From Euglena gracilis (taxonomy: Eukaryota), in contig CP154954.1 of the NCBI GenBank assembly GCA_039621445.1, positions 11,712,716 to 11,776,715 of the forward strand: 64,000 nucleotides of DNA, in the 5' to 3' direction. The stretch's first letter is position 1. The number at the start of each line of letters is the position of its first letter. Below are positions 41,001-44,000 of this stretch, in pieces. The notes below the pieces were generated by a model. The model made no database searches. It saw only the letters and a list, made by a program, of their open reading frames with translations, and was not told the origin of the DNA. The position numbers were made by a program, and so were the translations under genes.

Positions 41001-44000
41001 GGCCCCCTTTCCCACCGTAATCGTCACGATCCCGGCCACCCTTGCCGTAGTCGTCCCGGCCTCCCTTCCCACCGTAGTAGTCTCGGCTGCCTTTGCCATC
41101 GTAGTCCCGGCCGCCTTTGCCATCATAGTCGTCGCGCCCAGGGCTGTTCAGGAAGACTTGGTGGGGGGGGACCCACCCGGAAGGTGGGGGGGGACCCACC
41201 CAGAAGGTGGGGGGGGTCGAACTTCCATCACAGTAAACCCCCCCCAAAAATAAGACCCGGGTCTTATTTTTGGGTCCGCTGCTGGAAGCCTCCAGGGGGG
41301 GTCTTAATTTTTGGGGGGGTCTTATTTTTGGATTTTTTCTTGACCGACCCGGGCCCGAAAAAACACCATTTTTAAGGTTCCCGAGAGTGCTATATTTTTT
41401 CCTTCGGCGCTTCGCGCCATGTGTAAATTGGTGTAATTTTGAATTTACCCTGTTTTTTCCACTTCAAAAATCTGAATTTTTTTGAAATTTCATCATTTTT
41501 GTGCATAAAATTGGGGTTTTTGGCAATTTCTCAGGGAAAATTTTCACCGTCCCCGGCGCTTCGCTCCGTCAAGGGGGGTCTTATTTATGGGGGGGGTCTT
41601 ATTTTTGGATTTTGCTCGATCGGCCCAGGGGGGGTCTTATTTTTGGGGGGGTCTTATTTTGCGGGGGGGGTCTTATTTTTTGGGGGGGGTTACCGCGAAA
41701 TGAAAATTTTCTTCGGCCGAAGGCGCCAAAGGAAAAATTTGGCCTAAAGACCTGCACCGCGGGAAATACCCCTGGTGGGCTGGTGGGGGGGGGGGGGCGA
41801 GGGGGTCCCTCCACCCCCCCAGCGTGGGGGTGGCAGGGTCGTTGACCGTCGCAAGGGTTTCGGGGATACCGGTACAGCGCCCTGGTCGCGACCGCCCTTG
41901 CCGCGGTAGTCGTCGCGGGACCCCTTGCCCCCGGCGTCGTCGCGGTAGCCCTTCCCGGAGTCCCGGCGGTCGCCTTTGCCTCCGTACTCATCTGGGTCCC
42001 AGCCAGGCCGGCACTCTTCGAACGGCGGGGACGAGGCAGCTTGCACATACACATACACATACACATACACATACACATACACATACACATACACATCACA
42101 TACACATACACATACACATACACATACACATACACATACACATACACGTACACATACACATACACATACACATACACATACACATACACATACACATACA
42201 CATACACATACACATACACATACACATACACATACACATACACATACACATACACATACACATACACGTACACATACACGTACACATCCACATACACATA
42301 CACATACACATACACATACACATACACATGCACATACACATACACATACACATACACATACACGTACACATACACATACACATACACATACACGTACACA
42401 TACACATACACATACACATACACATACACATACACATACACATGCACATACACATACACATACACATACACGTACACATACACGTACACATACACATACA
42501 CGTACACGTACACGTACACGTACACATACACATACACATACACATACACATACACATACACATACACATACACATACACATACACATACACATACACATA
42601 CACATACATACATACATACACATACACATACATACACATACACATACACATACACACACATACACATACACATACACATACACATACACATACACATACA
42701 CATGCACATACACATACACATACACATACACATACACATACACATACACATACACATACACATACACATACACATACACATACACATACACATACACATA
42801 CACATACACATACACATACACATGCACGTACACATACACATGCACGTACACATACACATACACATACACATACACATACACATACACATACACATACACA
42901 TACACATACACATACACATACACATACACATACACATACACATACACATACATGCACATGTGGAACACCGTTTTCAATTCGAAATTCTGGAAAATATGAA
43001 ATGTTGTCAAAAGTGCAAATCTTCAACAGAAAACATGTGCCACAATGAAGTGGTGGGAAAACATCTCACAGAAAAGATTGTATTCTGCTTGTGAATAATT
43101 CTAAGGTGTGGAGCAAAATGGACCACGGGCCAACAAATTGAGGGACATGATTTGGTACAGAGCGGCCTGTGCACGCCGGGAGTATTCTGGGCGCTCACCT
43201 TTGCCACCGCCGCCAGGAGGTGCCCACGCAGAGCCGAGGACGGGGGGGGCAGGTCATCTGCGCACCGGATGCACGCAGCAGTCAACGCTTTGGCAATAAG
43301 CATCCCTGACCTTTCCGCAATGCAGTCTCGCAACGGCAAGGTTGGAATACAGAATGTGTGAAGAGCACATCCGTACCCCCAACCCCAGATTGGCTGTTAG
43401 GGGTCTGTTGCCGCCGAAGGGGGGGCGGAGGGGGGTGTAGGTGTGAACCCGGCACACCAGGTGCCCGGCGGGGAAAATTTTTGTAGGTTTCAGAGGGTCA
43501 AGTGTTGATTGTCTGGACACAAAAAAAAAATTAGATAAGGAAATAATTTAAAAAAATAAAATTAATTTTCCTCCCCAACTCAGGGTGAGTGCGTGTCGGC
43601 CTCCCCCGGGTGCAATGCAGAGACAGATGGGGACACCCTCACGCCCTCCCTGCGTCCTCCCTTGTTAGGTATTAAAACCCCTGAGGATGCGGGGCTGTAC
43701 GGATATGCCTGGTGTGGTGGTGGTGGGTCGCCCCCCCCCTGCCCACCATGGCACCACTTAAAGAAAAATTCCTTCGGCGCCGAAGGCACCAAGGAAAATT
43801 TGACCGAAAAATCAGCGCCCTGGAAAGATGGGAAGGGGTGGTGGGGGGGGGAGGTCGAGCCCCCATCCCCCACCAGGGCAGAACGAGAAGGCCTAGCGGG
43901 GGGGGGTCGACCCCCCCCAGCCGGGAAGTGGGAGGGGGGGCGGGTCGACCTCCCCCACCCACCACAGCATTTTCACCAATTTTGGGAAAACGGGGACGTT

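Follow-up and report, generated by a model that had tools for sequence, protein, structure and literature searches.

Where do the nonconventional introns of euglenids come from? Their origin, together with the question of what removes them, has been posed as open in papers from 2013 to 2025, and such introns are reported to make up 71.8% of the introns in E. agilis. We approached the question at a single locus of Euglena gracilis, a 754-nucleotide (nt) interruption on the minus strand of a gene for a protein with a DBC1 domain. The locus lies in a 64,000-nt stretch (GenBank assembly GCA_039621445.1, contig CP154954.1, positions 11,712,716 to 11,776,715 of the forward strand), which as a whole is called the window here and to which all coordinates refer. 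An earlier note, made from the letters of this window, had read the interruption as a young intron derived from a MITE (a miniature transposable element with inverted repeats), with a left end resembling that of a nearby family (here, family A), and carrying a second element nested inside. The intron, its transposon anatomy, and the nested element hold; the likeness to family A ends beyond the terminus, and the youth of the insertion is not borne out. The stretch 41134-41887 is a real, RNA-verified nonconventional intron, and it probably arose from a small nonautonomous DNA transposon that duplicated 8 bp of its target on inserting into an exon and was then removed from the RNA by nonconventional splicing.

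Four public sequencing runs (X1, X15, X21, and X24) were aligned to 40560-42040 at a likeness of at least 85%; X1 is one of 14 likely DNA runs that were listed, X21 consists of raw RNA reads, and X15 supplies a transcript contig. In the RNA runs, a joint leads from 41130 to 41885, skips exactly 754 nt, and can be slid by 6 nt. X15 has it in one contig of 1,351 nt (depth, 127.5), with at least 114 nt on each side and with 0 and 2 other letters on its two exon pieces. X21 has it in 17 raw reads (8 + 9) with 17 different starts and sides of up to 72 nt, while X24, at about 1x exon depth, has 0 reads with the joint. In X1, 0 contigs skip the 754 nt, and DNA contigs with the intron present span both junctions (40953-41235 and 41767-41949). 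Because the depth of X21 is 0 over the unique left arm of the intron (41160-41209), versus about 4 to 27 on the exons, removal of the intron looks efficient. Its retention would, by translation, lead to a stop after about 47 codons.

Evidence that does not depend on the sequencing runs comes from the 1195-residue protein P0001 (eukprot EG_transcript_763, in which “EG” presumably stands for Euglena gracilis). Its sequence is continuous across the junction, and the 46 amino acids encoded by the exon at 40996-41133 are 100% identical to it. In the sense reading, the exons and the intron ends are ...GGC AAG GGC GGT CGC | GAC CAG GGC GCT GTA CC...GAA CAG CCC TGG GCG C | GAC GAC TAT GAT GGC.... The earlier note had predicted that the exons meet at 41888/41133 and that excision behind a 3-nt (N3) and a 5-nt (N5) spacer restores a GGR-DDY coding repeat; the joint seen in RNA is this one, and the message runs unbroken through ...GGT CGC | GAC GAC TAT.... 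The features of the locus are collected in Table 1.

Table 1. Coordinates of the intron, its parts, and its relatives in the window
Feature	Position	Strand	Description
Nonconventional intron	41134..41887	minus	754 nt; RNA joint, protein read-through, no GT-AG placement
Upstream exon (sense)	41888..41998	minus	111 nt, 37 codons; RNA depth and joints at both ends; P0001 residues 263-299
Downstream exon	40996..41133	minus	138 nt, 46 codons; 100% identity to P0001; RNA joints at both ends
Transposon-like core	41139..41884		746 nt in all, 290-293 nt once the nested element is subtracted; CAGGGC...GCCCTG termini
Left flank 8-mer	41131..41138	plus	GTCGCGCC; 41134-41138 are the intronic N5 spacer, 41131-41133 are exon
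Right flank 8-mer	41885..41892	plus	GTCGCGAC, a palindrome; 41885-41887 are the intronic N3 spacer
Nested element	41236..41691		Inverted ends, eight subterminal GGGTCTTATTTTTGG repeats; limits good to ~3 nt
Central palindromic motif	41707..41740		TTCGGCCGAAGGCGCCAAAGGAAAAATTT; holds CGAAGGCGCC at 41718-41727; aligns with 43765-43800
23-nt tandem duplication	41160..41205		GGTGGGGGGGGACCCACCCGGAA twice, in the left arm; 96% identical
Diverged core relative	43689..43870	plus	Left terminus GGGCTGTACGG and central part, ~75% identity; inside intron 44491-43209 of the same gene
Second left-terminus copy	22959..22989	minus	CAGGGCTGTACGGGAAGACCTGGTGG..., 27/31, z 11; in the intron after residue 1109
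Free family-A element	38863..39141 (element 38871-39133)		CAGGGC...CCCCTG ends; 8/8 duplication GCACAGAG on each side

The borders are not those of a conventional intron. The seven equivalent placements end in CA..AC, CC..GA, AC..CG, GA..GC, CG..CG, GC..GC, and CG..GG, and GT/GC-AG or AT-AC borders occur in none of them. The placement 41134-41887 reads GAC-CAG...CTG-GGCGC|G, with the next exon opening with the purine G, and fits the 5'-N3CDG...CH'GN5-6|R code that was genetically defined for euglenid nonconventional introns by Nomura et al. in 2025 (PMC12501133). In minimum-energy and centroid RNA folds, the intron is closed by a predicted 13-bp terminal helix (41892-41887 with 41131-41136 and 41885-41879 with 41138-41144; pair probabilities, 0.91-0.98), on which the two cuts would lie with a stagger of 2 bp. 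Such a stagger would fit the RNase III-type excision that has been proposed for these introns (PMC12621601). Introns of this class are released as full-length circles by a route that does not need the spliceosome; no back-joint, the signature of a circle, was among the joints listed for the aligned runs. Earlier work on euglenid nonconventional introns includes studies by Milanowski et al. from 2014 and 2016. Like the introns of this class, the present one lacks GT-AG, has CAG at +4 to +6 and CTG at -8 to -6, is followed by a purine, has paired ends and boundaries that slide by means of direct repeats, and is gone from mature mRNA. It does not differ from them in kind; in addition, it has an 8-nt flank repeat (7/8), relatives among repeat families, and a second element nested inside.

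Within the intron lies the transposon-like core, for which the limits proposed in the earlier note and both flank 8-mers are confirmed in the window sequence. On the plus strand, the core starts with CAGGGCTGTTCAGGAAGACTTGG (its opening letters being CAGGGCTGTTCAGGAAGAC) and ends with GGTACAGCGCCCTG. The 8-mers before CAG and after CTG are identical at 7/8 positions, and the lone mismatch is position 41891 (plus strand), a synonymous GGT/GGC site that varies (39.2 of 62.1 in the DNA of X1, 14/26 RNA reads in X21, and all of X15). A repeat search found a 14-nt inverted pair, 41131-41144 and 41879-41892, which is 93% complementary. The inverted repeat of the core itself is perfect for CAGGGC/GCCCTG and matches at 8 of 12 to 14 positions without gaps, which is weak beside the 11 to 12 of 12 in neighboring elements. 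Judged by sequence features, terminal inverted repeats and a flank of the fixed length of a target-site duplication (7/8) are traits of a MITE, and together with relatives elsewhere they support a transposon anatomy. The motif CGAAGGCGCC, which had been called common to the local MITEs, is present in the core and has three exact sites in the window (0.10 expected; 0/100 shuffles reach three). The other two are at 39011, inside the free family-A element, and at 1402, in MITE-like sequence of unset limits. With respect to the 23-nt tandem duplication in the left arm, the X1 DNA contig at 40953-41235 aligns with 23 gaps, consistent with the absence of one GGTGGGGGGGGACCCACCCGGAA unit there, and the duplication may thus differ between strains or haplotypes.

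A flank match of this length could be a by-product of the repetitive coding sequence, and two kinds of control bear on this. In the 13 code-obeying introns of the gene, flank identity (of 8) is 6, 1, 3, 6, 2, 3, 7, 2, 2, 6, 1, 3, and 1; four of the 13 reach at least 6/8, and the intron studied here has the best-kept flank repeat in its gene (7/8, versus 1 to 6 in the 12 others). When the 5' flank of one intron was compared with the 3' flank of another, 2/156 pairs reached 6 or more and 0/156 reached 7 or more; with the 3' flank moved by 1 to 8 nt, the corresponding numbers were 1/208 and 0/208. Because none of these 364 control pairs reaches 7, the match is not produced by the GGR-DDY repeat alone. 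Moreover, the mRNA holds one copy of the 8-mer; therefore, both copies cannot be ancestral coding sequence. A scan of the window for CAGG...CCTG with flanks of at least 7/8 and an inverted repeat of at least 8/12 gave three hits, this intron included; 40 Markov-2 controls put through the same scan averaged 0.55 hits and had at most 4.

Two relatives of the core exist in the window, both within other introns of the same gene and away from exon junctions. When the nested element is excluded, the core matches 43689-43870 at a local alignment score of 74 (shuffles: mean, 18.9; z, 21); a right end of this relative was looked for and was not found. The other relative is the copy of the left terminus at 22959-22989. 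In X1, the summed word depth, which is not a copy number, is 883 to 1067 over the left arm of the core and 1265 over 41710-41759, versus 57 to 80 on the exons (12 to 19x for the arms). A metagenome scan with the core terminus gave 0 matches. A Pfam search of 16 long frames of the window found no transposase domain and one sub-threshold LED repeat.

The earlier note had likened the left end of the core to that of family A. This is true of the first 19 nt; beyond the terminus, the likeness is lost. What the core and family A have in common is a terminus pattern, CAGGGCT-N7-AAGAC (three sites versus 0.37 expected), and the central motif only, and membership of the core in family A was rejected on internal scores of 26 to 33, versus 74 for the true relative at 43689-43870. 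On these comparisons, the core belongs to a different family. The free family-A element, 38871-39133, has an inverted repeat of 11/12 and lies off every mapped exon. Family A comprises three copies of 260 to 300 nt, at 38863-39141 (8/8 flanks), 32028-32340 (element 32036-32332, 6/8 flanks), and about 39735-39975 (degenerate); two of the three are within mapped introns, and 38871-39133 is in a stretch of incomplete protein mapping. Elsewhere in the window, at 8596-9092, there is a 481-nt element (8604-9084) with a perfect 12-nt inverted repeat, CAGGGAATTTCT (12/12), and a flanking 8-mer that matches at 7/8. This element and 38871-39133 share the end type of the core.

The nested second element is real and is a member of a very abundant repeat. 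The summed word depth of X1 over 41210-41709 is 0.1 to 1.6 million, versus 57 to 80 on the exons, and 27,401 X1 contigs aligned to 40560-42040. A 31-nt inverted pair found by the repeat search (41228-41258 and 41668-41698, 87% complementary) bounds it. The other copies in X1 part from this one at 41236, 41238, and 41239 on its left side (agreement, 0.34-0.36) and, on its right side, at 41689, which places the element at about 41236-41691; the limits first given for it, 41231-41695, were slightly too wide and should be nearer 41236-41239 and 41689-41691. The 64-kb window contains no other copy, and a metagenome scan with a 19-mer of the element gave four loci matching over only 15 to 26 nt, which are chance hits and not the element. 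Its flanks, GTAAA and TTAC, are mutually complementary and not direct repeats, and readings as a TA or TTAA-like target duplication each need mismatches.

How could such an element have become a seamless intron? We think it likely that a small nonautonomous DNA transposon with CAGGGC...GCCCTG ends landed in an exon of the DBC1-domain gene. The insertion would have fallen within the codons GGT CGC GAC GAC, where 8 bp of the target (G-N-CGCGAC) would have become duplicated. Once transcribed, the ends of the element would pair in the pre-mRNA, with the palindromic 8-mer extending the helix, and euglenid nonconventional splicing would cut 3 nt ahead of CAG and 5 nt past CTG. Together with the element, precisely one of the two 8-bp copies would thereby be lost, and the original reading frame would be restored. 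Since only the ends matter in this proposal, the intron could afterward have withstood both changes, the 23-nt duplication and a second element inserting into it. We infer that the insertion took place, that the transposase was hAT-like, and that there are enzymes to cut and join the RNA.

Among DNA transposons, hAT elements make 8-bp duplications and have YARNG-type ends, which in maize Ac/Ds are of the CAGGG type. A Ds element acting as an intron was reportedly described by Giroux in 1994. The core resembles hAT MITEs in its 8-bp duplication register, its small size, its lack of coding sequence, and its CAGGG ends; it differs from them in its short inverted repeat and in that no transposase partner was identified. 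The evidence for a hAT-like origin is good though incomplete; the transposon reading as such is well supported and unproven. Merlin elements of E. gracilis, which likewise make 8-bp duplications, were considered as a source and rejected, because the conserved terminal GG that is described for their inverted repeats (PMC8101967) does not fit the CAGGGC ends of the core.

The 3 nt before CAG and the 5 nt after CTG add up to 8, which is the length of the duplication. This leads to a broader and more tentative proposal, which we regard as a serious possibility short of an even chance: the “noncanonical splicing code” of euglenids may itself be a code of transposon ends, and the very large load of nonconventional introns in Euglena may be the footprint of a single 8-bp-duplicating (hAT-like) superfamily. 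If so, any CAG...CTG insertion, whichever way it is oriented, would start out as a seamless intron, as long as base 6 of the duplication is a purine. Support for the register comes from one gene, in which four of 13 code-obeying introns keep 6 to 7 of 8 identity at the 8-nt register. We found no publication that ties 3 + 5 to an 8-bp-duplicating superfamily; figures and supplements (for example, the sliding-distance chart of PMC12501133) lay outside this search.

The idea that euglenid introns derive from MITEs is itself already known; it was put forward by Milanowski et al. in 2014 (PMC3935182) and repeated in PMC6221363 and PMC12501133. As of 2013, transposable elements had still to be identified in the genomes of euglenids, and the idea has so far been based on inverted ends and on vague “duplication-like” repeats; a 2024 review speaks of the ends of nonconventional introns as inverted repeats and of their flanks as duplication-like (PMC11282704). 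The present locus is an unusually clear case, in which one 64-kb window holds an RNA-verified intron with transposon anatomy, passenger relatives in other introns, and a free element of the same end type with an 8/8 duplication. It thus gives the old idea a concrete example and adds a simple arithmetic prediction, 3 + 5 = 8. One close counterpart is intron 4 of gapC in E. agilis ACOI 323, a recently gained nonconventional intron whose junctions with the exons bear a direct repeat of eight nucleotides, taken by its authors as a sign that a double-strand break had been repaired (Milanowski et al. 2016, PMC4770533). The intron studied here is likewise nonconventional and has an 8-nt repeat at its junctions (7/8). 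However, gapC intron 4 is, by that account, absent from other strains and demonstrably recent, whereas here no empty allele is present in X1 and transposon relatives are visible. The introners of Micromonas and other algae, as described in the 2024 review, are also short transposons with inverted ends that insert into exons, and their removal from RNA, with part or all of the target duplication, likewise restores the message. They carry or create GT-AG borders, are spliceosomal, and make 3-nt duplications (PMC11282704); the present intron differs from that description in following the euglenid CAG/CTG helix rule and in its 8-bp duplication.

Several observations weigh against a transposon origin. 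The inverted repeat is short (6 nt contiguous, 8/14 ungapped), and with 8/12 the intron drops out of a stricter CAGG...CCTG scan at 9/12 or more, in which two hits remain. Both relatives in the window are partial, with 74 to 87% identity, and no full-length second copy of the core with both termini, no transposase, and no autonomous partner was seen in the 64 kb. The depth over the arms may partly reflect G/C runs and the motif CGAAGGCGCC, which is common to other element families, and the bin with the right terminus is at single-copy depth in X1 (70.9, at the same likeness of at least 85%). Finally, GTCGCGAC is palindromic, so that matching flanks add to the length of the RNA helix as well and could be preserved on that account, and the empty site is found in 0 contigs of X1. 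An alternative that draws on some of these points is that the intron is genuinely nonconventional but that its ends are no transposon relics, reflecting instead the need for a helix or the repair of a staggered break with filler DNA, while the repeat-like interior is later transposon cargo only. The extension of the predicted helix to 13 bp by the palindromic 8-mer, the single-copy right terminus, and the partial nature of the relatives would suit it, as would the double-strand-break reading already proposed for the gapC intron, which has a direct repeat of 8 nt (PMC4770533). We nevertheless consider it quite improbable. The code, as published, leaves the N3 and N5 spacers free (PMC12501133), so that matching flanks are not expected by selection, and the other nine code-obeying introns of the gene have flanks of 1 to 3 of 8. 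Nor is filler DNA expected to end in inverted repeats like those of the free element 38871-39133, with its 8/8 duplication, and the left terminus is also present at 22989 and at 43691, off any exon junction. A conventional spliceosomal intron or an assembly artifact, to which we assign practically no probability, is refuted: none of the seven placements offers suitable borders, DNA contigs of an independent run hold both junctions, and the 754 nt are missing from RNA.

Descent from an 8-bp-duplicating transposon being the preferred reading, how old is the insertion? The earlier note had called it young, and the best-kept flank repeat among the 13 code-obeying introns, with 7/8 identity and seven equivalent placements, would agree with this, as would the position of the lone mismatch at a still-polymorphic site and the documented gain of such an intron within a species (PMC4770533). 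A recent insertion would be polymorphic or lineage specific within Euglena gracilis. X1, however, contains two sequence variants (contig depths, 39 and 23) that both have the 5' junction of the intron, and the joined form is absent from its contigs. The inverted repeat of the core has decayed, with both arms differing from the copy at 22989, and the relatives are just 74 to 87% identical. Of the roughly 450 positions of the nested copy, at least 16 depart from the majority of its family in X1, and the host insertion must be older than that copy. An origin that is both transposon derived and recent is thus, in our view, unlikely.

P0001, which carries a LAIKA domain in addition to DBC1, maps on the window as a gene on the minus strand that runs from 51390 down to 17030, over more than 34 kb, and is split into 36 or more coding blocks. 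Of 35 block junctions, 29 were mapped; those left out are five gaps in the protein and one small indel. The mapped introns comprise 13 of the N3-CDG...CH'G-N5 type with a purine next, two N6 variants, nine GT-AG introns, and five of neither type. All nine GT-AG introns are in the 3' part of the gene, between residues 746 and 1091; the 17 mapped introns before residue 746 are 11 nonconventional ones, five of neither type, and one N6 variant. The neighbors of the intron studied here (40742-40995, 41999-43172, and one starting at 40651) obey the code as well, and RNA joints or loose ends back all three. Intron 41999-43172 contains an (ACACAT)n microsatellite of about 900 nt at 42040-42950 and is spliced despite it, with 35 X21 reads joining 41998 to 43173.

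Between 39480 and 40652, the exon or exons for transcript residues 376-416 are unreadable. The exon joined in RNA at 40652 (KGGYRDRDRD) has no match in the window within five mismatches, and a look-alike with indels exists near 39584-39620; the missing exon could be due to a haplotype difference or to an assembly error in the G/C-rich repeat. Two introns on the minus strand, 48009-48558 and 45305-45631, have neither GT-AG borders nor the CAG/CTG code, yet their inverted ends are strong (13/14, CC-N-CCGGCGCCTG, and 11/14, respectively), and they may represent another end class. In an all-against-all comparison of the mapped introns at E 1e-6, introns 28340-29117 and 31926-33065 were found to have a common stretch of 40 to 54 nt with 85 to 90% identity, and there was no further intron-intron match. 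A near-perfect palindrome of about 50 nt (GGCAGGTGGGAAGTTTAATACCCCCC / GGGGGGTATTAAACTTCCCACCTGCC) lies within an AT-rich microsatellite at 22765-22815 and may be another small foldback element.

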